DNA of 64,000 bases. It comes from Octopus sinensis. Taxonomy: Eukaryota. Position numbers and translations under genes: made by a program. Below the pieces are notes generated by a model. That model did not search any database, was not told the origin of the DNA, and was given only the letters and a program-made list of their open reading frames with translations. The stretch lies in NCBI RefSeq assembly GCF_006345805.1, contig NC_043001.1:37510001-37574000 (forward strand), written 5' to 3'. Each line of letters opens with the position of its first letter. The stretch's first letter is position 1. Of the stretch, positions 6,582 to 58,947 are shown piece by piece.

Positions 6582-7384
6582 TTGTCGACTCCTAAGCTAT
6601 TGCATTTTCTCAGAGTTAGTCCCTCTTATAGATTATCGTCGTCTTTCCAATGCTTTAGCAACCTAATCTTCAGGAAGCTCGAATGTTTGCGACCAGGCTA
6701 CTTTGCCCAAACGGTTTGGGGATCCAGGTCTGCGCAAGTGCTCGTCTCTACCTCTTCTCTCTTTTCTTTCTTCCGTCCACATCTGCACCCATTTAGATGA
6801 CAACACCTCCTACTCTCTAACATGGACTAGTTCCAACAGGAAGATGGATGGAGCTCTGTTAAAGTGGAAGCTTGTCAGTTCTTGTTACAGTTGAGGACAG
6901 ACGGAAGCAGAGAGTATGGGACAATCTGCGTTCAGGTGCCAGGTGCCACTTTCAACTCTCACCTTGATCAATCTGATCAATTTTCAAGGTGTTGCATACT
7001 TTCTACTAGTGCAAAATTCTCCGGGGACTGGATTGAACCCTGCCTGTGGCCAACATTGGAAGTCTACAGTCTAGATGAGCTCTGCATCTCTATCACACTC
7101 GGAGTGGGAGCTGACGTCTGTGGGGGACTGAGATGTCGCTGTGGTTGGCTCCTCCACTCCACAGGTCTTCACGGTCTGTCTTGCTGCCTAAATACTTGTA
7201 GTGACGCGATCTTGGAAATCTCCAGCACGCATGCGCAGGGTTGGAATCTTCCGGAAGGCTTGCCGGAAGTTCCTTCATGCGCGTGCGCAGAAAACTAGCA
7301 GCAGCGAAATTCTCTTGTATCTCTCTCTTGGACGCTAGCAGCTGAACGATACAGACGTGTCTCTAGCAGCTCTCTCGAGCTGCT

Positions 7385-9395
7385 ACCTCGTGGGCATCTC
7401 CCCTTCATTTAGTGCGGAAAGGGGATACTGATTTTCGCTCGGTAGGGGACTATAGGCGTCTCGACGCAGTAACGGTTCCTGACCGCTATCCAATCAGAAA
7501 TTTCAGGATTTTTCGGCGCATCTTCATGGCTGTACCATTTTTTCAAAAGTTGACCTCATTCGTGCTTATCACCAGATACTGGTCAACCCAGCCGATGTTC
7601 CGAAGACTGCTATTACCACTCCTTTAGGGTGCTTTGAATTTCTCTTTATGAGTTTTGGTTTGCGGAACGCTACCAGCACGTTCCAGCGTTTCATTGATGA
7701 AGTCCGCGGTCGTGATTTCGTGTTTGCTTATGTTGATGATATACTCATTGCGAGCGACACCCGTGAAAATCATCTCCGGCACTTGTTTTAGCCCTTTCAG
7801 CGTCTTCGCGCGTTAATCCAGACAAGTGTGTGTTCGGGCAATCTTCTCTTGACTTTCTCGGCCATCAAACCTCTCTCGCCTAAAGTAGATGCAATTCAGT
7901 GCATCGCACCTCCTACTTTCTTGCGCCAGCTCAGGCATTATCTAGGGATGGTCAATTTCTATAGACGTTTCATTCCCGGTTGTGCAGATAAGCTACTTCC
8001 TCTCACCAAGCTATTAAAGGACACCCCTAGAAAGGACGATCAAGTCACCCTCTCCGTTGAGGCACTGACAGCTTTTGAGTCCATCAAGAAGGAGTTAGCT
8101 TCTGTTCCTTTGCTTGCACATCCGGTTCCTGGTGCTTCACTCTCTTTAACTGTAGATGCATCGGACACTGCGATTGATGCTGTGCTGCAACACAGTGGAC
8201 GATCAGACTCTAGCTTTCTTTTCTTGCCAACTGCAACCAGCTGAGTAACGATACAGCACTTTTGATCCTGAGCTCCTAGCGGTCTATCTATCGGTTCATC
8301 ATTTCCAGCATCAAATCGAAGGTCGAGATTTTGTGATTTATACTGACGTATAAATATAAATATACTGACGTATAAATATAAAGCCTGTTACGTTTGCCCT
8401 GTCATCTAAAACGGACAAAATCTCACCTCGTGCTTTCCGTCACTTGGATTTTATTTCACAATTTACCAGTGACATACGTCATATACCTGGGAAAGAGAAC
8501 TTCCTGCTGACGCTCTCTCTCGCCTTCCAGTCTGTTCTCTTTCTTCTCCTGCTGTAATTGACTTAACTGCCATTTCGCAGGAGCAACCACCTTTGGCGAC
8601 GTTAGACTTAACTTCGCCTAAGTTCTCCTGTTGCCAGTTTGCCTATCTTCCGCTTCCATCAGCTGAAGCTACTTCCACTGGTTTTCCCAGGCTACTCGTG
8701 CCTGAGAATCATCAACGCTCAGTGTTTGAGGCACTGCACTCTTTATCACATCCTGGCATCGCTGCTACCCTTAAGCTTATCACTGCTCGGTTTTTCTGGC
8801 CGAATATGTGTCGCACAATTACCTCTTGGACACGCACTTGCTCCAAGTGCCAACGGTCCAAGATTCAATGGCACATTCGAGCCCCGCTTGGACACTTTCC
8901 TCCCAAGAAGGCCCGTTTTCGCCACGTCCACATTGATCTGGTTGGACCATGGCCTGTGAGTCGCGGATTCTCTCATCTTTTAACCTGTGTCGATCGCTTC
9001 TCTCGTTGGCCAGAAGCCATTCCGATAGCAGATATTTCTGCTGAATCTGTTGCTAGAGCCTTTTTTTCTAACTGGATTTCCCGTTTCTGAGTTCCATCCA
9101 GATTGACTACTGATCGTAGACGTCAGTTTGAAGCTTCGTTATTTCGTGAATTGTCGCGCATTCTAGGTGTGCATCATATTCACACTACCAGTTATCATCC
9201 AGCTTTTAACAGATTAGTTGAACTGTTCCATAGACAGCCCAAGGCCGCTCTACATGCCCCTGCAGATCCACTGTTTTGGACTGAATTTCTGCCAATTGTG
9301 CTTCTCGGTTGTCGTACTGCTGTCAAGGCAGACCTGGGTTTTTCTTCTGCAGAGCTACTATATGGTACCACACTGGCATTGCCTGGTACGATGTT
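7385..9395 (+). mobile_element. Ty3/Gypsy LTR retrotransposon pol remnant (RT, RNase H, integrase), pseudogenised
   Basis: [29 protein letters not shown] (about 7728-7740), [42 protein letters not shown]. Stops and frameshifts present; no LTR pair found. Confidence 0.92.
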
Positions 9396-9792
9396 GGGAA
9401 GCAAGCTTCTTACCACACGACCACGCCTTGGGCTCTTTTGATAAGCCGTGTCGATTTTTACAATTCTGTAAATAATAATGGTAATATTTAATGAGCTTGA
9501 AGCATATGAGCGATCACCATGTAATGACTAAAGGAAATAGCTTAATATTGGGGCATACGAGTCCTTGATGGAAAAAAGTAGTGTTGAGCATTTGTTGTAT
9601 TTCTTCTCTGACTGGCGATTAAGCGGTTTTCGTTTATTTGCATTATTATCTTCAAATCTGCTCACCTGGACTCCTCTTATACACACTCGTTACCCCCACG
9701 GACTTAGTCCTTGGTAAAGATTTCAGAGTGTAATTCCAAATCATTTGAGCGCACCTGATTTCTGTGTTGAGCATCTCTGAATCTCATCTGCT

Positions 9793-12299: not shown

Positions 12300-14400
12300 T
12301 ATTTGCCTAGTGGACGAAATACAAACTAAGGGCACATAACTGCTGTGACTGATGAACTTCACACGTGGTCAGGGGCTTCAGATTTAATAACAAATCTGTT
12401 TATTGACTACAGCTTGCTGTACAATTAGCATTTCCTTGCTAGGCACACCAATCATCATATATCCGTTGCCTTCACTGTACGTATACACAAACGTAATTCT
12501 ACTTTGATTTTACTAGATACCTCCCTGTTAACTCTATACATATTCTGATTGCTTGATATCTTATTTCTATATATATATTACCCATGTTTGTGTTGTGTTA
12601 ACACAAGAACGACACTATTTACAATATGTCGTGCACTATTATTGTATTTTTTTTTAAGAGAATGACAAGTCCTGGAAGTTTTAGTTTCAATATTTTACTG
12701 CAATGTATATATATATTTTGTTTATAATATATGTTATTCCTGTTGTGTCGTTGACAGATCCAAGTATTATATCCTGCTGTATTTAATTAAAGTGTATAGC
12801 CACATTGTCTTCTCGTTTTCCCATTATTCTTTTTATTCTTAATATGTTTACATCCCTTATGTGTTCTTTTTTAAGAAATGTTTCAACACCCAGATGTAGC
12901 ATTTATAGTTCAAATCAACTTCGAAGTTTTAACTATCAAGTTGAAATTTTACACGCAAACACACAAACATTGCTTTGTTTTGCTTTGCTGTCTTATTGTA
13001 GGTTTATAGTTTCATTAGAAGTATAATTGGTTCGTCATCAGCTTTACTTCATTCCAATTCTGTTAATTATTTTTTATAATGAACTGCTTTTTATATCAAA
13101 ACAATCACGACCGCCCCAAGTATATCGTCTTTACGTTTTGTCTTCTCTAATTCTTCTTCTTATATTTTGACGCCTTTTTGTTATCCCTTACTTTACAACT
13201 GTCCTCTTTTAACTTTTGTTTTTCCACCAAATTTCCTCTAAACATACAACAAATTGTTTTTGTTTATCCGTCGTATGTCATTTATCAGTCCTTTGTCGTA
13301 ACAATCTGTTTGTGTGGAGCTTGTCAGCGAGTGGCAATTTTCAAAAACTTAAATCAAAACAAATCATTATCCTTTCTTTATCCCTCCTCTCAACAACAGT
13401 AAAGAAAGATTGCCGAAATATTTACTGCCTTCTATCTGTTTACTATCCATACTACACCTTTGTAGTAGTAATTAGTTGCATTTTCTGCATAGTGTTTTAC
13501 CCTACGCCAATTTAAGCTTTTATCCCGAATATTTTAGTGTCCGTTCTTTGTGGTTTTTCATTTCTTTTCTTTACTAATGCTCGAATCTTCCTATTCAAGT
13601 TATTTTAATTTGGCAATAAAAGCTAGTTTTATTTCAATTACACTGCAAGTTGTTGAGTGTACCAGTGTATCAATATCCGAATTTCTTTTATTGTATTCGA
13701 AAAATTGCCGAACACTCATCTAAACTTAAAATACTTTTGAAAATTATGCTGCCTAATTCTGACTTTACTTCTAGGCTTCACATGCTTCTAGGTCTTAAAT
13801 ACTTACGACCTATGAACCATAAACTTCTGTGGTCACCAGATTTACAACACTTGGAATTTTGTTAAAACCTTCTAGGTTAACAAACGCAAGGTATAGTTAT
13901 TAGCTTTTCACAAAGCATTTTTATTTGTCGCCCTCTCACGAAGAATGACAGTTTTGTCTTTTGCTCATATGCTATGATTCTGATTACACCATTGATGTCC
14001 TTACTATTTTTCTAAATGTCTTCATTGTCACTGTCTAACTAGCATAAATAGGTGTGTTTATTTGATGTGAAATAGAAGTTTCTTAACTAACGCCTTCTGT
14101 GCACAAAGTTGAATAATATGAATCTAAACTTGCTCAATAGGTCAGTCATTGTTAATTCTGGGATGTGCTTTTATTGTTACAATCACTTGTCGAGTTGTAC
14201 TTTTAAATTTGGAGATCACTTAATACAACTTACACTGACGTCTGATGTTACATATACAAAAGGTGAATGTGTTAGAGACTTTTTATAGAAGTCTGTTTAC
14301 ATTTTAAAGCACACTAGGTACTTTAAAATCATAACCAGATATAGACAGCTGCGGTGTCTAGTTGCTTGTATAGAATACTGGAAAAGAGTTATTGAGAGGA
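12300..14400. promoter_or_regulatory. Repeat-free, relatively CpG-retaining region; candidate promoter / first non-coding exon of the downstream HTH gene
   Basis: No recognisable TE over about 2 kb. Visibly more CG dinucleotides than in 20-27 kb. T-rich + strand. TSS and donor not resolved. Confidence 0.35.
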
Positions 14401-16803
14401 AACGAAATATGTAAAGAGGATGAAATCGTCAGCTTCAAATAGTGATGAATTATTAATTATCTATATAGTGCTCTAAATGTGCACTTCTTTGTTACAAATC
14501 TCAGTGTTCCTGGCCAACTCTGAACCAGGAGAACTCTTCTTAATCTTTAATTCAAGACAAGCTTAAATGTGAATATGGTCAAGATTAAAATATTACAGAT
14601 ATAGTTGTTGTGCTGTCTTGGTAAGATAGCTTGTTTGTGTTGGTCACCATTGCCACACTGGAATGATACGTAGGTACTTATTGGTGTGAGCTTGGCTGCC
14701 TGTTAAACCATAATGAACAAGCATGAACATAATTGCATATTTTAATGGTACGATTTATTGAACAAGACAACAATTGAATATAAACTAACAATTGCTGGTA
14801 GAGAATGTAGTGATTGGAATAAAACAAAGTAATGACTAACTAGGCTTGAAATGCTGGAAAGAATTGGCCTGCAAGTATGAAGAAGAGTTCCTCTTCAATT
14901 CCAGCCAGATTCAGTTAAGGAAAATTTGGTGTTGCTGGATGAGAGATGAGGTGTATTTTCTGGTGACTTTCGCATATCTTTGTGACAGTTCTGGTTTGCT
15001 TGTCAAGAGGGGAGGTATCTATTCTCTGGACCTCTCTCAAACCTCTACTGTTATCTGGTTTCCTTATGGTAAAAGGTGAGATCTGTGTTTTCTGGCTGCT
15101 GTGAAACCTCTGTGAAGATTCTTGGTGCCAAACTGCTAGAGAAAAGTGCTCAAATCTTAGGGACATTTGAGATAGTGTTCATGATATAGCTGCAAGCTGA
15201 TTAGTTGATATTATTAGATTGGATTGTAAGATGGCAAGCTGGCAGCATTGTTAGCACACCAGACAAAATGCTTTGTGGCATTCCATCTGTCTTTACATTC
15301 TTAGTTCAAATTCTGCTGAGGTCAATTTTGTCTCTCATCCTTTTGGGGTTGATAAAATAAGTTCCAAATGATTGAGCACTGGGGTTGATGTAATCGACTA
15401 TCCCCCTCCCCACAAATTTGTTCCTATAGTAGAAAGGATTATTTTCTGATTGGAAGGCTTATAAACTAAATCAGACTGAGTATTAAGTCAAAATATTTGT
15501 ATATATATATATGTTGCGAGGCAGTTTGGCTGATTGTTAATATTGGAAGTTTCTGATATTAACAAATAAACATTCCTTAAGAATATGTATGTGTGTATAT
15601 ATATATCTTTTATTTTTTACTTGTTTCAGTCATTGGACTGTGGCCATGCTGGGGCACTACCTTGAAGTGTTTAGTCAAGCAAATTGACCTCAATACTTAT
15701 TGTTTTCTAAAGCCTGGTACTTATTCTTTTGGTCCCTTTTTGCCAAATTGCTAAGTTATAGGGATGTAAACAAACCAACAGCAGTTATCAAGCATTGGTG
15801 AGGGACAAACACAAAAACATACGAACACACACACTCACCTATCATCATCATTTAATGTCCATATTCCATACTGGCATGAGTTGGATGGTTTCAGAAAAGC
15901 TGGCAAGCCAGGGAGCTGTACCAAGCTCTGTTGCCTGTTTTGGTATGGTTTCTACAACTGGATACCCTTCTTAATACCAACCACTTTACAGAGTGTACTG
16001 GGTGTTTTTTTTTTTTTCATAGTACCAGTACCAGTGAGGTCACCAAATAACTTGCAATACAGGACAAAGTCTGCTTGACTGGGTGGAGTAGTATTGAGGG
16101 AGTGGCATTATGCCAGTTGATGAGAGGTTAAAAGAATAATAGGGTAAGAGATAGGTATCTTACTGTGGAAGAGATACAAGGATACTCTAGTTGGCAAAGA
16201 AGAAAGAGACTTCGAGAAAGATAGGCATGGGGACAGTAAGATGTGTATTTGTGTATTTGTATGTACATATGCTCACACATTTATACAACGGCTGGAACTA
16301 CCAAATATTCTTGTTGGCAGGAAAATTGGCAAATGTGCATCTGTACCTTCTAGTTCACTGTAAATATATGCATGTGCGTGCGTGTATGTAAGGTGTAGGC
16401 TGTATGGTTAAGAAGTGCACTTCAGAACCACATAGTTAGGGTTTCAGTCCCACGTGTAAGCATTGTCAACTGGCATTCTATATTGTAGCCATGAAATTGG
16501 TTGACGGTAACTTAAGAAGCCTCTCCTTTGAGTGTGTGTATGTGTGCATACACACATACATGGCTTAGTGGTTAGGGTGTTACACTCCTGATCACTAGAT
16601 TGTGATTTCAATTGCTAGACCAGGTGGTGTGTTGTGTTCTTGAGCAAAACACTTCATCTCACATTGTTCTGTGATCACTTCATTACCTGATGCTTGGTAC
16701 ACTGTGTACCTGTTCAGACTGTCAATTTGATGGAGAGAGTGAGCTAATGTGCGCTATGAACATTTGATCACTACAAACAAATCGTTTGTGCAGCTCATTC
16801 AGC

Positions 16804-17070
16804 CATGGCTGTGGATTCGGAGTTGGAAATAATTAAGGGGTAGTTGGAGTCGGTAAAACTATATTGACTCCAACTCTCAATATCTTTATTCTTTAATATA
16901 AACCAGTTATAACAGTTAGGCCTACTCAAAGTACAAGTGTATGCATACGCTTTATGAGATATGTAGACCACAATCACTTAATTATATAAAGAGGAGTCGG
17001 AATCAGAGTCAGAGGTGCCAATAGTACAGGAGTTTGAGTCAAAGTTTTTTGCTTCAACTCCACAGCCCTG
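16804..17070. mobile_element. hAT-type MITE
   Basis: CA.GGCTGTGGA ends, GGAGTCGG subterminal repeats, 8-bp TSD cattcagc/cattcaac. Inserted in a SINE. Confidence 0.75.
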
Positions 17071-17124
17071 CATTCAACAAAAGCTGAACACTCATATGTC
17101 ATCTTTGATGGGAGAGTCCATCAT

Positions 17125-17173
<49 letters not shown>

Positions 17174-17839
17174 TGTGATGGTGCATGGAAAAATCCATTG
17201 GATGTCACTAAATAAACACCTGAGAAAAACGGGGCCAAAGTCACTAATGGATGTTTTTACATGGTAGTTGTGGCAGATGACTTTACCTTAAATACCAGGG
17301 GTCCTACCCTTTTGATAAATGAGAAAAGGCTAAAGTTGTGAAAAGTCTTTTAGTTCTCAGATACACTCAACTTCAAACACTGTTTTCTCAAAAAGGCCTA
17401 TTTTCTGGGTCATGTCTGGCAAATATATTTTACACACACACACATATATATATATCATCATCATCATCGTTTAACATCCGCTTTCCATGCTAGCATGGGT
17501 TGGACGGTTCAACTGGGGTCTGGGAAGCCCGAAGGCTGCACCAGGCCAGTCAGATCTGGCAGTGTTTCTACAGCTGGATGCCCTTCCTAACGCCAACCAC
17601 TCCGTGAGTGTAGTGGGTGCTTTTTATGTGCCACCGACACAGGTGCCAGACGAGGCTGGCGAACGGCCACGCTCGGATGGTGTTTTTTATGTGCCACCGA
17701 CACAGGTGCCAGACGAGGCTGGCGAATGGCCACACTCGGATGGTGTTTTTTATGTGCCACCGACACAATATATATATTGTATAAAAGATCATGGGTAAGG
17801 CCAAAACAATGCAAAGTATATGCAAGGTAAATCACAAGA

Positions 17840-18815
17840 AAACAAATATGTGAATTAATGTAGACTTACCTTGTATTCAATATTTCGAGGTTATGACCCC
17901 ATTTTCAAGAAACTGACGAATGTTGCCGATGTGTGTGTGTGGAGTGGACATGCACAGAAGGGTGTTGCTATAGCAATGAGCTAGCTTCCTGCAACTCCCT
18001 TCTATTATTGATCTTGGGTTTCTTTTAGTGTATGAGGATAGCCTCAGAGATTCTAAGGTTGCCCTTGTACCACTGTGTTGCCTTGATGTGCACTGTGAAC
18101 TCTCGGGTCTGGCATTTCTGTAAATGTTTCTTCACAGAAACGTCTGCCTGCATATGTTCCTTAATGTGTACATGCTGTTTTCTTGTCATGCTTCCGATGT
18201 AGGATTTGCCACAGATGATCTCATATACAACATAGATCCTCTGGCACAATTCAGGGTCATTGATGGGGCAGTTCGACAATGTGCACTCCTTAGAGTAGTG
18301 TGAGGTGTTGTTCTTGGGAAGGGCCAGTGTGCACTATCTGTATGTCGAGTCCTTCCCTGCGGACTGTGTGTTGTATCGCTGCAGTAGTTTTATCATCAAA
18401 GTGTGGTAGCTTTAGGAAGCACGTGCCAGACTTGGGAGTATGCTGTTCTTCCGGGGTTTATTGACCTTGATGTTCTTCAGGCACCGTTGTTTAGCTAAAG
18501 ATGGTGGGTAGCCATTCAGTGTTAGATCTCTGAGGAACTGTTTGGTGTAGACAGTTTTGTCAGTCACATTGCTGCAATCATTGTTTATACGTGCAATCTC
18601 GTTTCTCATGTATGCGACTTTGGCTCTAGTGGGCAAGGCTGATTGGTAGTGGATGAAAAGTTTTCTATTAGTGGCTTTTCTATAGAATTTGGTAAATATG
18701 GAGCCTTCCTCTGTGATCTTGAATTGGAAGTCGAGTAGAGTGAGGGTTCTGGATTTGTCTGGATGTTCAATCTTGAATTTGATGTTTATGTCAGTGTTAT
18801 TGAAGGTCCGGTATA
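17840..18815 (-). mobile_element. Penelope-like element, 5'-truncated: RT thumb/linker + GIY-YIG endonuclease, frameshifted
   Basis: ORF 18412-18885 has IKFKIEH..L.LLD..FYRKAT..IHYQSALP..NGYP. ORF 18025-18279 has VVYEIICGKSYIG.M.R...IKEH. Degenerate hammerhead at 17873-17913. Confidence 0.85.
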
Positions 18816-19199
18816 TATTAATGGCCATAGATAATAGAGGAGAGATAATTTGGTGGCATAGAAAGGTGGTTGAAGTAAACTTCATGAGGGAAGGGGAGGG
18901 ACAATATTAAGACTAAAGGATAAATTTTAAGTGAAGTGGTTCTGGATTGTGGAAAAGCTAACTGGTACTAGAGAAAAAGATGATGAAATATGCTGTTCTA
19001 CTCTCATTTAATTACAGCTGCAGAATACTGCAGTTAGGCAGTGATAGAAAGATGATGGTTGGTGAAGAAAGCTTAAAGAAGAATTTGGGTGAGGGACCCA
19101 GTTGTGTGTATATATTTATATATGTCCAATGTATTTCCAGAATTTCAATTTTTCCAAGATGGGTGGGTCTTCTCAATCACTATATATTGCCAGCCATAT

Positions 19200-19935
19200 G
19201 TTTTGTCGTTTCTTTCAGGTGGTTCAAAGAACTAAAACTAGCTTTTACTACTTTATCTCATGTCTTCCTTTGTCTCCTTCATCCACAGGCTCCATCTGTA
19301 TTAAGTGATCAGTGCTTCTTTATACAGCTCATCCGCATGCATCACATGTCTATACCAGCACAGTCCTCCTTCTTGCACACCACATCTGCTACCTTTTATG
19401 ACCAAGTTTTCTTTCAATACATTTGTACTTTGTCATTCATGTACACTTGCATTGCACATCCACTACAGCATGCTAGCTTCATCTCTTTCTAATCTTCATA
19501 AGTCCTTTGCATTGAGAATATCCTCTGCCACTACTAATTAGGTCACCTAGGGAACAGAAACTATTTACTACTTCTAGCGTTTTTCCTGGGCATTTAAGAA
19601 AATCTATTTTGTGTGGGTTTTTAGTGTTTATTGTTCCTGTGCATCTACTACAAGTAAAGTCTGCTTTTTCTGTTAACCTGCCTATGATACCACTGCACTT
19701 GTGTGTCCATTGTTTGCATTGCATACACTATATGATATTTCTACTTTTCTACATATCAAGTAAGGCCATGTCCCTGGTGGAAGCTGAGATCTGTTTGTGT
19801 TTTCCTACTTATTAAAACTTTGGTTATTGAATTAATTGGACATATATAAATTAATGTGTAGAATTAATTTCTTTTCTAATTCTACTTATAACTTCAGTTA
19901 TAATAGCAAGGTCATTAGTACAAGAGTTCCCACAC
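19200..19935 (-). mobile_element. RTE LINE 3' fragment
   Basis: CKQWTHKCSG..FTCSRC..LEVVNSFCSLGD, homologous to 60625-62010. Confidence 0.7.
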
Positions 19936-19944
19936 TGGTCTTAA

Positions 19945-20165
19945 CGCTTTTGTTACTGTATCTATTTTGAGATGCTCTGTGTTTCTTTCAATTATTTTAA
20001 ATATAACAAAGAATTTAGTAAAATAACTTGATTATCATTAAGATAGTGTTAGGAACATAAATTGTGACTAAGGTCTGTTGGAAGATTTTAATTCAAAACA
20101 TGTGAAAATGAGATATTTGTACTACAGAGCCAGAGCTAGTTTCAGCCGGGTTGGTATTGAAAGGG
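19945..20165. mobile_element. piggyBac-type MITE
   Basis: TTAA|C.CTTT...AAAGGG|TTAA. Same family as 31320-31532. Confidence 0.7.
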
Positions 20166-20934
20166 TTAAAATCTTCTGTTATAGCCTGATGAATGGGGTG
20201 ATGGTGGCTAAGAACTGAACCCTGATGAACTCCTACCTGCTTACTAAAATTGTTGCAGTATACATTGTTAACTCCCTGCTAACTTTTAACAGCTCTGTAC
20301 ATAACTTTTATGGCTCTCACAAGTCACCTCCTCAGTGTTCATGTGGTCATAGAGCAAAAAATCTTGTTGAAAAGCTTGATTGCAATGAATGTTAAGTACA
20401 GCAGCTTACTTTTAGCTAATTATTTCTCTTTCTCTTGCAGTACGTATACATGCATCTATTTCATATGTATGTGTGTGTGTGCCTACGCCTTTGTGTGTTT
20501 ATAATATATATATGGATGTATGTGTCTATATATATATATCTCCATTCTTCATATTCCATTCACAAGGCTTTAGTCAATCCAAGGGTATAGTGACCCAAAG
20601 TATCATGCAGTGGGATTCGAACCTTGTACCACATGGATGCTAATTAAACTTCTTAATCACACAGCATTCAGTTACAGGTGTTGCCTTGTCCTGTTTTCAT
20701 TCAGTTGCACAAATCTGATATATCTATCACGTTAGCAAAGCTAACAGGAGAGTCTGGTGTTGAGGTTGTCATTAACACAGTCCTACCCTCAAACAAATAT
20801 TGTTTTTACATTTATATACATATATTATATATTTACACTCAGCTGTAAAACTGATAAACTATTTTCCAACTTAGTAGTTATCATAGTAATTATATTAACT
20901 TGATTTGACATGCAGTGTTATTTCTGAATATTAT

Positions 20935-20975
20935 TGCTAATTATTTTCTCTTATTTTATTTTTATTTTTGCACAG
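20935..20975 (+). promoter_or_regulatory. 3' splice site of a 5'-UTR intron of the HTH gene
   Basis: tgctaat, then ttattttctcttattttatttttatttttgcacag|G, 13 nt before the ATG. Confidence 0.7.
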
Positions 20976-20988
20976 GCATTAATCTACT

Positions 20989-21435
20989 ATGAGTGACCAG
21001 AGTCCATATACAATTGAAGAACGATTAATTGCAGCTGTTTGGATGCATGATCGTGTTCTTAATAATAAAAAAATACCCGAAATTCGGCGATTGTTCCAGG
21101 AACGTTTTGGAAAGCCTTCACCTACACCACGCATCTTGAGAGAATGGGAGAAAAAAGTATTTGAAACTGGTAGTGTTCTTGATGCACCTCGTTGTGGTCG
21201 ACCAAGGACAAGATTTGAACATTTAACTGCAATACAAGAGTCACTTATTCGTTCTCCTTCATTATCAATGAGGAAGCGTTCGGCAGAATTACAAATTCCA
21301 AAAAGTACTTTGAGAAAAATTCTTAAGTTAGATCTTCCACAAGATGCAGTGGTATATGAAGTTCAAAACAAAAATGAAGATAAAAAAGTCGAAGTATGTC
21401 GAGTTATGTTTCAGAAATTTCCATTTTTTGGATGA
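20989..21435 (+). CDS. Transposase-derived bipartite helix-turn-helix protein (DUF4817-like N-terminal HTH + GRPR linker + second HTH), no catalytic domain; probable domesticated host gene
   Basis: Intact 148-aa ORF. Motifs YTIEER..F.ERF..P..I.EW.KK.FETGSV.D..R.GRPRT and SPSLS.RKRSAELQIPKSTL.KIL..DL match the N-terminus of IS630-Tc1-mariner transposases. Branch-like tgctaat, a pyrimidine tract and CAG acceptor end at 20975. An in-frame TAA (20980-20982) precedes the ATG. No TIRs seen nearby. Confidence 0.8.
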   Translation: MSDQSPYTIEERLIAAVWMHDRVLNNKKIPEIRRLFQERFGKPSPTPRILREWEKKVFETGSVLDAPRCGRPRTRFEHLTAIQESLIRSPSLSMRKRSAELQIPKSTLRKILKLDLPQDAVVYEVQNKNEDKKVEVCRVMFQKFPFFG

Positions 21436-22830
21436 GGCATCAAACTATATGCATATTGCAGTGTGCATCACATTGCTGTATGCATGCAATTATGGTTTAC
21501 AATATTTTTGTTATTTTTCATTGTTAAAACCAGTCTTCTTTTCTACTTCCAAAAAAGCCTAAATTAATTATTTTTATTTATTCCATTTAATGATAGTGAT
21601 TTTGACTATTTTTTTTCTTTATCTAATTTAACTCATTTTATGCTTTCATTTTACTGATTTGCCAAATACACATCTTGGAACTGAATAAATACAAGGGCTT
21701 CTGCTTTCCTTCTCATTGATGCTACATCTATCAATTATGAATATTGACAATCATTTACGTTTTTTTAAACCTTTTGGATATTTGATCTCGTTTGGATAAA
21801 AGTTGCTTACTGGAGCTTTTGCAATTCAATCTTGGAGAAAGTATGTCAAAAGATGTCTTATTGGCTTCATAAGGAAATAGAAACAGCAGTAGTATATAGG
21901 CATGTATATGTGAAAGAAGAAGCTCATTTGTATTGTAACCTTCTTGTTAATATAAATATAGATTTTTACCTTGGATTGTAATTTTCTATCAGAGCCAAAA
22001 CAACTAAATCAGCATTATTCTGCATATATTTTGCATGAATTATTTAATTAATTTTTTTTCTTTGTGTATTTATTTATTTTATAGCTTCTCTTAAGACCAG
22101 CTAATTGTAAATAATAGTGTCCTGCTCTATGAGATTCCTTATACTTCTGTATTCTATCATGAAATCATTGACAAATAAAGAATACTGTTAAAAGTCCTCC
22201 AGTTGGCCTACATAGTTTCATACTAGGATTTGACTAAACAGACATATCTTATGCAATCTGTCTTTAATCCAGACAATCACTTTTTCTTTCTCTCCTTCTG
22301 TCTTTCATTATCACTGTCATATTCTTGTATGTCTGCAGATAAATGAAGTCAAGTAAAAGTAATAAGCTGTTATTATAAACTTGATTAAAAAAAAAAATAC
22401 TGCTAATGGCTATGGGTATATTGGGGGTGGGGTGGGGTGAATTTTGTATTATTTGTGGCAGATGTCCCTATAAAATAATAAATGTTCATTTGGATTTTAA
22501 TGAGATAAGAAATTGATTGTATCAGACCCTTTACTATTATTTTATAGAGTTTATATTTCATTGTATAAATATTGAGAATATGATAAAGAACAAGATGGGG
22601 AAGCTTATGATGTTAGTGCAAAACAGTGTCAAATCTTTACTCTTGTTGCTTTCTCAGTGTTTTACTGTTGTAGGATTGTGATCAAAGTATTGACAGCAAA
22701 GGATTTGGTAAACTAAATTTTAATTTATTCCAAACACTTGAGAAATTTTTGTCTTTTGACTTGAAGATCATTTCCAAAGACAAATTTAAGGTTTAATTAT
22801 AGAAAATATGAGATCAAATAAAATAATTGA
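21436..22830 (+). other. Putative long 3' UTR of the HTH gene
   Basis: About 1.4 kb of T-rich, SINE- and microsatellite-free sequence with AATAAA near 21684, 22174, 22477 and 22817. Confidence 0.45.
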
Positions 22831-25559
22831 AGAATTTTTTTTTTAGATGTCTTGTGATTTTATCATGCCATTGTTACATCTTTTTTTTTTTATGCAAACA
22901 TTTTTTAATGTACAGCAGTGTTTAAGTATCAGTGAGTCACATCAATTACTTTAGGGGTTTTTTTTTACGATGCTACTGTGTTGGAGAAATCTCTCTTTTA
23001 CTCTTTTACTTGTTTCAGTCGTTTGACTGCAGCCATGCTGGAGCACCACTTTTAGTCGAGCAAATCAACCCCAGGACTTATTCTATTGGTCTCTTTTGCC
23101 AAACTGCTAAGTTACGGTGACGTAAACACACCAGCAAGCGATGTTGGGGGGGAGGGGAGACAAACACACACACATATACATATATATGATGGGCTTCTTT
23201 CAGTTTCCGTCTACTAAATCCACTCACAAGGCTTTGGTCGGCCCGAGGCTATAGTAGAAGACACTTGCCCAAGGTGCCACGCAGTGGGACTGAACCCAGA
23301 ATCATGTAGTTGGTAAACAAACTACTTACCACACAGTCACTCCTGCACCTCTCCGGAAACAAACTTTTATTGTTATTTTTCAGGATGATTTTTTTTATTT
23401 TTATTTTGGTAAATAAACTCACACACTATATACTTGTTCTACACTTCAGCTTTATTATTGTTCTTGTTTTAGTGTCCTTTGTCTGAAATCTTTCATCACA
23501 CATCCTGTGATCCCTTCAGTGACTCTCTCTTCCATGTGTCTCCTCCTGTCCTGTTTAGTCCATTCAGAATGGGTGAATATATTGTGTGTGTGTGTGTTTA
23601 TTTGTCAAAAGAAAAAATAATGACTATTCCGATATATAATAATATCTGTTTCAACACACGATTTCACATCAAGAATCTTGCAAAACAAATACATTAAACT
23701 TTTTCTTTCACAATACAAGTCAGGTAGTGACTAAGTCGTTATTGTGATACAATTATCAAACATTATGGTCAAAATGAAAAATCTTTTGTTGATAAAATAC
23801 TGTAATTATTTCTTGTAAAAAAAATTCCTCAGTAAAAATAGTTAAGTAGTTTTATCATTTTACAGTTAAATAATTTGTGTTAAGAATATCCAACTTTAAA
23901 AACACATTTAACAGTTCTGACAAGTGTTGAATTTTCAGAATCCACTTCTGATGCATGTGGAAACTGATAAAAATGGTTAGCATCTGAGTGGTGAGAATCT
24001 AGAGTCTTAAAGACTGTTAGTCTTGTCATGTCAAGGGCATAACAACCTCTGCCAAGATTAAATACCTCACCTGTACACCCTGTAAAGTGGTTGATAATAG
24101 GAATAACACCCAGCCATAGAAACCGAACCTAAAAAAAAATGTACAAGTGAGATGTGGTCCTTCAACCAATCTATAAAGACAGTAACTCCAAATTAGTACT
24201 TACCTGGAGTGTGATGACCTGTCCAACTCATGCAAACATGAAAAGTGGATGTAAAATGATGGTGATTCCTTTAGTTTTCTTTATATCTGCAGTTATGGTA
24301 ATTTTTCCTTATATCAGCAGTTAGGATAATTTTAAAGTACTTTTAACTAGCCACAGGACCCTGTGTTTCCAGGCAGAAAAGGAAATAGAATATTCTTATA
24401 CTCATCTGGTACTCCAGAGTATTAGCAGTTAAGTAAAATGACTTCTGCATTACATACTTGACTTAATGAGTAATTATTTCTTTTTCTTCAGCATTCTCTA
24501 AGTTCTAGTGACATCAGTACTACTCTTGCTATTTTTCCTTGTGAAATAGTGAAATACTTATACCATGGTAATTTTCTATAGCCTCTCTATTATCATCATC
24601 ATTATCATTGCTATTCTTTCATTCATTTTTCTGTGTCACATGGGTTGGGCAGGTCATCATAGCCTGAGTTCTGTTCTTATTTGGAGCTACTGCCACCTCC
24701 TAAATGGGTTGGGGATCACATCTCACTTGTACATTACATATTTTTTGATATGTTTGCTGTAGCTAGATACATTTTATTGTGGCAGCTACATTCGAGATTG
24801 TTTTGGTTTAGAAAAGACTGTTTTTTTCTTCACCATCATTAGAAGGTTGTCTCATCTCCAGCAGGCAAAAAGGAAGTATGGAAAGATCGCCAGCATGAGG
24901 GGCATAGAAATGACCCAGTGGTAGGCGTGGACAATAGGGGTGAAAGTGAAAGAAGAGAGAGAGAGAGAGCGATAAAATGCTACAAGATGATTGTTGGTAA
25001 AGAGATTCAAAAGGGCTGATGGGGGAAGAGAAAGTGATAGGAAGGAGACTATGGTGGAAGAAGAAGGATTGGAAATAAGAGTAGATAACAGTGATTAATA
25101 ATGGAAGAGAGAGTGTATGTGTGTATGAGAGAGAGAGAAATGGATAGCTATGAAGATGAGTGATAGTAAAGGAGTAGTGGTGATAGGTGTCAATAATGAA
25201 TGATAGATGAAGTATTGGGAGAGAGAGGGAATTATGGTTAACTATGAAGAAGTAGCGATTGAATACAGACAAATTCAATGCACTGTTATCTATCGTTATG
25301 CATTCCATGATGAGTGAGAAACAGTGATAATAGGGAGGTGTATTGGCTGGGGAAGAGAGTGTGATAGGTGAGTCTAAGGAAGCAAATGGAAGAATGATAC
25401 ATTGAGACTTAATATGAACAGAATAGTTAGGAGAAACCAAAACGTAGACATTTTACATCCCAATCTCTATCATCATAGTTTATACATCTTGTTTCTTCAT
25501 GCTCATGGGCTGTGCAGGCTCTCTTTAGTAAAGCATGTCTCAAATCTCTGTCCTTTTTA

Positions 25560-30354: not shown

Positions 30355-31319
30355 TAGTGGCATGTAAAAAGCACCCACTACACTCTCGGAGTGGTTGGCA
30401 TTGGGAAGAGCATCCAGCTCTAGAAGCTCTGCCAGATCAGATTGGAGCCTGGTGTAGCCATCTGGTTTGCCAGTCCTCAGTCAAATCGTCCAACCCATGC
30501 CAGATGGAAAACGGATGTTAAACAACGATGATGATGATGATGTGTATCAAAGATTACATAGTTCAATTATCCTTTAAGTTGACAGGCTGTGATTTATCCA
30601 ACCAAAAGGTGTTGGCCGAATGTTTAATGATTTATATCCTGTTATTCATACTGTGCTATGTAAAGCAAGAAACAATTCTCTGTTAACCAGCTGTTATTTC
30701 CTGTTTTAGAATGGTGATGGCGTTCAGTGATAGACATGTGTTACACATTCTGCAGTACAGCAGTACAAATGTTCTTGTTGGCAAGGGAAACTACTCCAGG
30801 TTAATATATTTTCCTTGATTATATTCAACCCTTGATGTTAACAGGGCAAAAAAATATTTGGATGTTTTTGTTGACAAAATAGTCAAATAATTGATTCTTA
30901 TGTACCAAACTCAAAAGGCTGTTTTTGTCCAATCTTCTATGCTAGTATATATGGTATTTTTAATTTTAGCAATTGTTTTTACAGCCCTTACTAACACAAC
31001 CACCATAAAAGTAGAAGTATAACCAATCTTAGGTAATCAGAGTTATGTACCTTGTCCATAAGAACACCAATGTCTGCAATGAGAGGTTTGAACTTCAGAT
31101 CATGTTAATATGTCCAGCATCTAAACAGCATAACAATAGTGCCTATGTTACATGAAGTTAAATAACTTCTTGGGTCATCTTTAAGTTTCTTATTAGCCAC
31201 TCATTATCATTCATGTCAGAATAATGGTGCTAGCTAGGGATAGATAGCAGTATTCGTAAAACATGGTATTTATGAAATTTCAAATAACTGTTGCTATCAA
31301 CCTCAGAAATTAACTTTAA

Positions 31320-38741: not shown

Positions 38742-39367
38742 CAGAGATTGTACAAAATAATGGAAACACGTAGCATCATAGCATCATAATTTTGAAATAT
38801 CTATAAAACCATCAAAAGCTTGTTTATTTTTGTTTTTTGATATTTTATTAATGTTGCTTAATATGTCTTGTTAAAATTGCTGTTTCTTTTCAGATATCAT
38901 CAGAAAAAGGTAATTAAAATTCATTACAATAACAGATCTATCGGACTTTTAAAGAGGTCAAGTTGTTGTATGGCAGGGGCTAGCATAACGAAAACAGCTG
39001 AAATGCTTGGTGTGTCAAGAAGTACTGTCTTGAAAGTAATGACAGCCTTTGAAAAAGAGGGAAAAATCTCCTTGTCGAAACAAAACTCCAGAAGAAAGCC
39101 AGAACTTTCAGATAGGGAACATTGGACTCTTACGCGAATTGTTAGAGAGGATCACAAAAGTACAGCTCCAAAAATTACTGCCGAACTTAATGACCACCTC
39201 AAGAACCCAGTTTCCACAAAAACTGTTCACCAGGAGCTGCACAAAGCCATATTTCACAGGAGGGCTGCAATCAGAAAACCATTACTTTCAAAAACTAACG
39301 TTGCAAAGTGTTTAGAGTGGAGTAAAAATCTACAGATTTGGTCCCTAGAGCAGTGGAAGAATGTTAC
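38742..39367 (+). mobile_element. Tc1-family transposon 5' fragment (left end + DNA-binding region)
   Basis: TA|CAG...CAAAATAATGGAAACAC end. ORF 38868-39386 has TAEMLGVSRSTV, VSTKTV..ELH, AAIRKPLL, WS.EQWKNV, truncated before DDE. Confidence 0.85.
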
Positions 39368-40309
39368 CATTGATCCCAGTACTTGACTGGTATTCAATTT
39401 TATTGAACTCAAGACAGTGAAAGGCAATGTTAACCTTAGTAGGATTGGAACAAATACCACAGACCATTTAACAATTCTACCCACTTGAGTGATATTTTTG
39501 AGGTAGAAAGTCATATAGTGAAATGGAAACATTCAGTTTCATTAACCTCAGTAAATACCTGTTGATCTAAGATTTTAATTTCTCTGTCTGTTAATCTCAT
39601 CCCCGGTCTTGAAATATTCTGTTTAATATTTGCATATCTATAAGGCAGCAAGCTGGCAGAATCCTTAACACACCAGGCAAAATGCTTAGTGGTATTTCAT
39701 CTGACTTTATGTTCTGAATTCAAATTCTGTTGAGGTTGACTTTGCCTTTCATTTTTTCAGGGTCGATAAAATAAATACCAGTTGAGCACTGGATTCAATG
39801 TAATCAACTTGCCCCCCCGTCCCCGAATTGCTGGCCTTGTGCCAAAATTGGAAACCAATATTTACATATCTTGACTACATTTGATTCCTTATTGTCATTA
39901 AGTGTCTTATGCCTAGGTATGTGCATATTGCTTGTCTGGATTCAGGTGTGGAACCTGATGACAAATGAAGATCAAACCAGTTGAAACATAGTGTAGATGT
40001 TAATACTAAATATTTACTTTCATCTCCGAAAGGTTAATAGACTGAAAAACTGAAATTTTATTAGCAACTAATCATCTCAGAAATTTTGACATTTAATCAA
40101 CAAATAACTTATTTTATCATTCTAGCAGGAGAGAATTAACCATAGTAATTCTTTAATTTAGAAGTGAAAGTGACAAAACTAAAAACCGTAAAATCAAGAC
40201 TATCATCTTTTTTTTCAACAACAATAATAGTAATGATAATGTTAATAAAAATAATCATCTCACTAACACTCTTCTATGCTTGTCTGAGACAGACGAAATT
40301 TGTTGAGGC

Positions 40310-58175: not shown

Positions 58176-58947
58176 CAGGGTGTGACGGGTAAATTGTTGC
58201 CATTTTATATTTTTAATTTCATGCATGTACATTGTTTGTTTCTGATTTTATCAACTACACAGTATAGTAGGGTCAGTTGGGCTCCAATACAAACAGATGG
58301 TGAACACATAAGACAACCATTGGCTTTCCATGTCCCCAAAACATGTACCAAGAGTGATGAAAATCAAATATTCAGTCAACATCATGGTATTCGGAGTAAT
58401 CACTAGTGATGGAGACATTATGCCTCCATTAATCTTCCCATATGGCCTCAGACCCAACAAAGTGGCCTATGTCAAGTGCCTGGAGGAGGTAGTGCTGCCC
58501 TAGATCAAGAAGGTGACTGCTGAAAGACCCTATGTCTGGCAACAGGACTCTGCATCATGACACACAAGTAGGAGAACCCAGTCATGGCTGTCAGGCAATT
58601 TCTGTGATCACATTACCCCTAACATCTGGCCACCTAATTCCCCAGACTGCAACCCTCTTGATTATTATGTGTGGGAGGCAGTTGAGTGAGAGACCAACAA
58701 AGTTCCTCGTAACACCAAAGGTGAACTGAAGGCAAGGATTATTGCAGCATTCACCAACTTAAACAAAGAGACCGTCCAGAAGAGTTGCAGGAGATTCCAA
58801 AGTCGTCTGGAGGCTGTGATTGAAGTCAATGGCAATTTTATTGAATAAATTTACTCTTTAGCATTTGAAGATATTTTATGTAATTTTGGTAAAATGAGAT
58901 GTCAGTATCATTTTCATTTTTGCGTAATTTAGATTCACCACACCCTG
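58176..58947 (+). mobile_element. Internally deleted DD37D (maT-type) mariner-like transposon
   Basis: TA|CAGGGTGTG...CACACCCTG|TA. Translation WQQDSAS*H...WPPNSPDCNPLDYYVW has 37 residues between the two Asp; stops present. Confidence 0.85.

Follow-up and report, generated by a model that had tools for sequence, protein, structure and literature searches.

The locus and its transcript

The window, the whole 64,000-nucleotide stretch analysed here (G000:C5:37510001-37574000, from a genome of 2.72 Gb), contains on its forward strand a small spliced gene from Octopus sinensis. Its coding and last exon (20976..22900) carries an open reading frame of 148 amino acids (20989-21435) with the ATG at 20989 and the stop codon at 21433-21435. 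The encoded protein consists of a first helix-turn-helix (HTH1, approximately residues 9-60), an RCGRP linker (residues 68-72), a second helix-turn-helix (HTH2, residues 75-114) and a disordered tail. An in-frame TAA lies upstream at 20980-20982, and the exon is preceded by a splice acceptor in which a long pyrimidine tract runs into CACAG, whose last letter is 20975. The original prediction, made from the DNA sequence, described an intact frame of two HTH units joined by GRPR (residues 70-73) behind a strong acceptor and an upstream in-frame stop, and the coordinates, together with the units modelled by AlphaFold2, bear this description out.

Four sequencing runs (X1, X4, X8 and X13) that are guessed to be RNA, none being on record as such, were aligned to the locus without a DNA-run control; 20 of 24 listed runs hold at least half of the region's words. 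In a contig from X1 (record 5), 12359-12476 runs directly into 20976-22424, free of mismatches and of other letters, and contig records from X8 and X13 begin or end exactly at 20976. The junction into 20976 that had been proposed as a check is therefore seen, with the full junction displayed for one of the four RNA-like runs, and expression is indicated by a spliced contig with GT-AG ends from runs guessed to be RNA. The upstream exon (12359..12476, forward strand) is non-coding, is unique in the genome by DNA search (one match of one candidate) and is followed by the donor GTACGT at 12477; an ATG was looked for in the spliced leader and is absent. Because the 5' end of this exon coincides with the end of the contig, the exon may in truth begin farther upstream. 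Additional upstream exons may exist because the X4 contig carries 79 extra letters that are unplaced in the table shown. The intron (12477..20975, forward strand) spans 8,499 nucleotides from GT at 12477 to AG at 20975 and contains unrelated repeats.

The 3' untranslated region (21436..22900, forward strand) contains AATAAA at 21684, 22174, 22477 and 22817. The RNA-like contigs end between 22802 and 22966, beyond the last of these signals in three of the four runs, and the T-rich tract downstream of the frame is therefore 3' UTR. The original prediction had called this tract repeat-free with polyadenylation signals; the signals are present, but the tract is not free of repeats, as the piece 22555-22711 recurs at G000:C5:26851042 with 97% identity. 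That piece is possibly a captured or retroposed fragment.

An internal donor, GTATGT, is located directly after the KVE codons (21394..21399, forward strand). Both the gene model of O. vulgaris and isoforms of the cuttlefish cluster splice from it, and proteins of that cluster occur in spliced and unspliced forms at the KVE/V boundary. As a feature common to octopus and cuttlefish, the donor lends indirect support to conserved microsynteny. This donor is read through in all four RNA-like runs examined. A possible alternative last exon, which would add NGDGVQ and a stop after TTTTAG (30710..30730, forward strand), matches the O. vulgaris model and is a candidate from sequence. Among the 30 matches listed in the window there is no homologue of the cuttlefish last exon.

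The sole Pfam match of the frame is DUF4817 (PF16087) at 14 bits, which is below the gathering cut-off of 22.6, so that the suggested domain match fell short. Relatives of the protein score 15.7-18.3 bits against the same cut-off, UniRef labels two of the orthologues as DUF4817 proteins, and the top Atlas cluster is 77% DUF4817.

Structure and DNA-reading surface

From an alignment of 72 rows, AlphaFold2 models six helices arranged as two three-helix units (residues 9-60 and 75-114) with a mean pLDDT of 79 and a pTM of 0.53, while the tail (residues 120-148) falls below a pLDDT of 50. The best structural neighbor found by Foldseek is the DNA-binding domain of SETMAR bound to TIR DNA (DBD-TIR; E 1.1e-3), followed by Mos1 and Pax5, with zero matches at E 0.001 or better. 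The residues of SETMAR that contact bases are R371, R392, R395, R417, H427, S428 and R432 (PMC9062482, accessible text). Profile alignment to PDB 7s03 maps these contacts to R48, R68, R71, R95, K105, S106 and K110 of the octopus protein. All 16 cephalopod-type rows keep R48, R68, R71, R95 and K110. Position 105 varies by subgroup between K, H and R, and position 106 is S or T, which may give the paralogues slightly different targets. R48 occurs in none of the 10 transposase-type rows of alignment A1 and in 10 of the 57 other rows of alignment A3. From the residues alone, we infer that a fixed, sequence-specific mode of DNA binding has been retained.

Origin from a Tc1/mariner transposase

Among 300 candidate relatives, four longer proteins are full-length transposases, and the frame aligns to their residues 1-149 with 43-51% identity. 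The spacing between the second and third catalytic aspartates in these four is 41, 46, 42 and 41 residues, so the DD41D placement is made by spacing, with 41 in two of the four, and not by a tree with reference elements. By this alignment the 148-residue frame is the N-terminal part of a DD41D-like Tc1/mariner transposase, and its tail is derived from the transposase linker.

The first catalytic aspartate of the parent is residue 161, within FSDE at residues 159-162, and similarity to the frame stops at about residue 149, ending in KFP. In a shifted frame, FLDEASNY (21425..21448, forward strand) overlaps the last codons and the stop, and is probably what remains of the first-aspartate motif FSDECAIY. 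It begins one nucleotide beyond the proline codon of KFP, an offset that fits the loss of about nine codons accompanied by a frameshift. Translated in six frames, the window has 127,996 residues and three occurrences of F.DE[ACS], which for a target of 60 positions gives odds of about 1 in 700, although the motif was picked post hoc. The resemblance noted in the original prediction is probably that of a real relic, and its survival may be explained by its overlap with the final codons and stop. The O. bimaculoides and Argonauta proteins also end in KFPFFG, so the break is probably old. Nothing else of the DD41D triad is present in the gene. Searches with tblastn and with an HMM built from the four transposases found no catalytic remnants downstream of either this gene or its paralogue, in keeping with the earlier statement that transposase similarity ends at the motif.

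Terminal inverted repeats and copy number

The terminal inverted repeats (TIRs) of the related elements L051, L052 and L003 start TACAGGGTG. Allowing at most one mismatch, this family motif matches the window nine times versus 12.2 expected, with zero matches between 16005 and 24075, and it is absent from the locus of the paralogue on C8. Against a natural TIR, the highest-scoring match reaches 17 of 28 positions, versus 16-17 for three shuffles. No TIR pair was found near either paralogue, and a target site duplication (TSD) cannot be defined without ends. These comparisons uphold the original reading of a gene that lacks TIRs.

A DNA search of the genome returned four matches from four candidates, namely the gene itself, the paralogue at 70%, the 157-bp piece of UTR and a fragment of 54 bp; a control Tc1 fragment from the same window gave 3746 candidates. 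At the protein level, the paralogue matched at 68%, and the remaining 148 of the 150 scored matches were partial and no more than 47% identical. The many near-identical copies with TIRs that would have spoken for a transposon are not seen, there being no close DNA copies of the frame. Judged by copy number and termini, the gene is not an active or non-autonomous DD41D element.

The decayed remnants elsewhere in the window differ in kind. The Tc1 fragment at 38862-39383 (forward strand) also keeps its DNA-binding frame open, but with 39 or more further copies at 88-91% it is ordinary. Broken pol remnants of an LTR retrotransposon, with integrase and RNase H domains, lie at 7367-9438 (forward strand), an unclassified remnant that resembles reverse transcriptase by translation and has no Pfam match lies at 18028-18906 (reverse strand), and a broken mariner-type catalytic fragment lies at 58378-58845 (forward strand). 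The claim that the other coding remnants are disrupted or truncated needs correction for the open frame at 38862-39383. Elsewhere in the genome, decayed resident elements of the same subfamily (L003, L040 and L060-L070) form a family with TIRs of about 30 nucleotides, and most of its scored copies match just the catalytic part of the L003 query.

Orthologues, paralogue and selection

Among named proteins, that of Octopus bimaculoides is closest (97%), and named orthologues are found in O. bimaculoides, O. vulgaris, Argonauta hians and Sepia pharaonis. Over residues 1-117, identity to the O. sinensis protein is 117 of 117 in O. vulgaris, 116 in O. bimaculoides, 113 in Argonauta and 84 in P0036, a member of the Sepia cluster. 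This is strong conservation at the protein level and goes against the neutrally evolving orthologues that the original prediction had named as a refutation. Within the tail (residues 118-148), 24 of 31 residues are identical in Argonauta and 11 of 31 in the Sepia-cluster member. The split between octopus and cuttlefish dates to about 270 million years ago, and the distribution of orthologues makes it likely that the capture of the transposase domain predates it.

The paralogue on C8 (L002 1501-1980; G000:C8:70057632) encodes a protein of 159 amino acids whose tail is rich in Asn, and an acceptor lies 11 nt upstream of its ATG. Between the C5 and C8 paralogues 83 of 117 residues agree, against only 7 of 34 fourfold sites, and their first, second and third codon positions are 70, 87 and 33% identical, respectively. 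The resulting pN/pS is about 0.2 (bootstrap 0.13-0.28), an approximate value as dS is saturated and one in which the divergence could include selection from transposon life. With this ratio and a DNA-binding domain far better kept than the tail, the sequences of the pair bear the mark of purifying selection.

In a tree of 46 rows, 14 cephalopod-type rows fall on one side with support of 83/78, which is under the starred threshold. Eight of the 14 are unnamed records, of which two cluster with the named Sepia protein and six are of inferred cephalopod origin. Group A (87/82) holds the octopods and the Sepia cluster, whereas the B/C group comprises the C8 paralogue, a second Argonauta protein and unnamed records; the C8 paralogue pairs with Argonauta P0006 at 100/98. 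A metagenome scan gave 10 loci from 89 pattern matches with best-segment identities of 35-47%, and no orthologue among them.

Argonauta protein names raised the idea that the gene is fused to eIF1 or shares a locus with it, which was rejected since all eight SUI1 matches in the genome are on other contigs. The eIF1 name in Argonauta probably stems from a distant relative inside an eIF1 gene. An internally deleted mariner-type element (L005/L029; G000:C1:202547.0-202547.55 kb, reverse strand), with an HTH frame still open and what appear to be TIRs, sits directly upstream of the SUI1 exons in one of two tandem eIF1 copies and is absent from the other; related copies elsewhere are 67-83% identical. 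This element may be the source of the Argonauta name eIF1b-like isoform X1, and it could be a young exon capture.

Related DNA-binding-domain-only proteins

A profile search yielded 1930 matches at E 0.001, and among the best 150 of these are proteins that have the DNA-binding domain with unrelated tails and come from three lampreys, four moth genera (Cydia, Achroia, Chilo and Choristoneura), a lacewing, a millipede and a lobster (labels: P0067 cluster; P0070, P0073, P0074, P0079 and P0081; P0072, P0077, P0084 and P0087; P0061 and P0062). The lamprey and arthropod proteins fall outside the cephalopod group in the 46-row tree, in which nine rows that include named insect proteins form a 100/97 clade. 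They are candidates for parallel domestications.

Proposed role and alternative explanations

The gene is very probably a domesticated DNA-binding domain of a transposase. A plausible history would have an element come to sit behind a splice acceptor, a deletion with frameshift truncate its transposase at the first catalytic motif, and the truncated gene then duplicate; the duplication of the gene, acceptor included, is suggested by the acceptor found 11-13 nt upstream of the ATG in both paralogues. In the resulting protein, HTH1 (R48), the RxGRP linker in the minor groove (R68 and R71) and HTH2 (R95, K105, S106 and K110) would together recognise a fixed target in two parts, about 15-20 bp long and inherited from the TIR of the ancestral element, with binding probably as a dimer as in SETMAR. 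Since there is no conserved effector domain, regulation would occur through occupancy of the site or through recruitment of partners by the variable tail. A role as a sequence-specific regulator acting at host sites on host genes is the favoured, if only moderately secure, reading of these features. The original prediction of a regulator or repressor co-opted from a Tc1/mariner element is thus sustained as to co-option, and a transcription factor is preferred to the TIR-binding repressor that it offered as the other choice.

Alternatively, the protein could restrain transposition by occupying the TIRs of related mariners or by poisoning transposase dimers through HTH1. In favour of this, the resident decayed family of the same subfamily has 40 scored places at 73-89%, and a 26-nt TIR pattern has 11 exact genomic matches versus none for a control. 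Binding to cognate transposons is also described for the KRABINER fusion (bioRxiv 2020.05.07.082677, accessible text). The resident copies examined are broken, however, and the one fossil copy read over this stretch, L060, is only 44% identical in HTH1, with PPKKTILRRE where the octopus protein has PTPRILREWE; this difference in recognition helix weakens the case for a repressor. That the recognition helix is constant across lineages would also point to an unchanging target in the host rather than to an arms race, and a repressor of transposition is accordingly rated unlikely. Somewhat less likely again is a structural chromatin protein like CENP-B that binds a repeated host sequence and organises chromatin rather than regulating particular genes. 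The disordered tail and the lack of an effector domain in the AlphaFold2 model would suit such a protein, and CENP-B is a precedent (discussed in the accessible text of PMC13548663), but no candidate target repeat was identified. Satellites turn over fast, whereas the DNA-reading surface of this family is constant.

It could also be supposed that no domestication occurred and that an internally deleted transposon left a frame open by chance in the last exon of a transcript. Frames limited to the DNA-binding domain do arise by decay in this genome, as at 38862-39383 of the window and in the TIR-flanked element beside eIF1, but these have many DNA copies or TIRs and the 148-residue frame has neither. 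The frame is conserved as far as cuttlefish, and in a neutral simulation at an assumed distance of 0.1 the best of 2000 runs kept 107 of 117 residues versus 113 in Argonauta. Decay is already largely refuted as an explanation and is very improbable.

Relation to known systems

The domestication criteria applied to Tc1/mariner genes are loss of TIRs and TSDs, purifying selection, expression and microsynteny (PMC13548663, accessible text). The same source describes Drosophila CG4570, which like the octopus gene is stand-alone, retains only the Tc1/mariner HTH module, lacks TIRs, is expressed and conserved, and has a function inferred from such features; domestication of the DNA-binding domain alone is therefore already known as a kind. 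CG4570 has measured dN/dS and synteny. It belongs to another phylum and presumably reflects an independent event, and the octopus gene differs in having a DD41D-like parent and a paralogue. The SETMAR domain (PDB 7s03) shares the bipartite HTH with an AT-hook linker and the conserved base-contacting positions, but SETMAR is a fusion of a SET domain with the Hsmar1 transposase and has many genomic TIR sites (PMC9062482, accessible text), whereas the octopus gene has neither a host domain nor a catalytic domain. DD41D defines rosa (PMC5490172, accessible text), and the nearest full-length relatives, with spacings of 41, 41, 42 and 46 and short TIRs, may belong with the rosa and Visitor DD41D family (PMC5490172 and PMC8472432, accessible text). 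Unlike those elements, the octopus gene lacks a catalytic triad, TIRs and mobility. As in fusions of the KRABINER type, a transposase DNA-binding domain was captured by splicing (bioRxiv 2020.05.07.082677, accessible text), but the upstream exon of the octopus gene is non-coding and there is therefore no fusion to a host domain.

A metazoan survey that includes Octopus covers, in its accessible text, six other families (PMC10027918), and four identifiers of the gene gave no matches in its five supplement files. Within a literature search by title and start of abstract, with subscription journals outside its scope, the gene is undescribed, LOC106876238 gives no matches and no described case of domestication from the DD41D branch was found. 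The gene appears to be such a case.

Regulatory novelty in coleoids is usually discussed in terms of expansions and rearrangements of old genes. It is tentatively proposed, as a reading that is rather less than evenly probable in its entirety, that a single DD41D-like transposon gave coleoids, before octopuses and squids split, a family of their own with two or three small transcription factors, whose DNA-reading surface has stayed frozen and whose targets lie in the host. In the same reading, independent captures of the DNA-binding domain alone in lampreys, moths and lacewings would make this transposon subfamily an unrecognised, recurrent source of animal regulators. The gene is a concrete example, in cephalopods, of a tiny DNA-binding family that comes from a transposon and is deeply conserved yet uncharacterised, and it hints that lampreys and insects made parallel captures.
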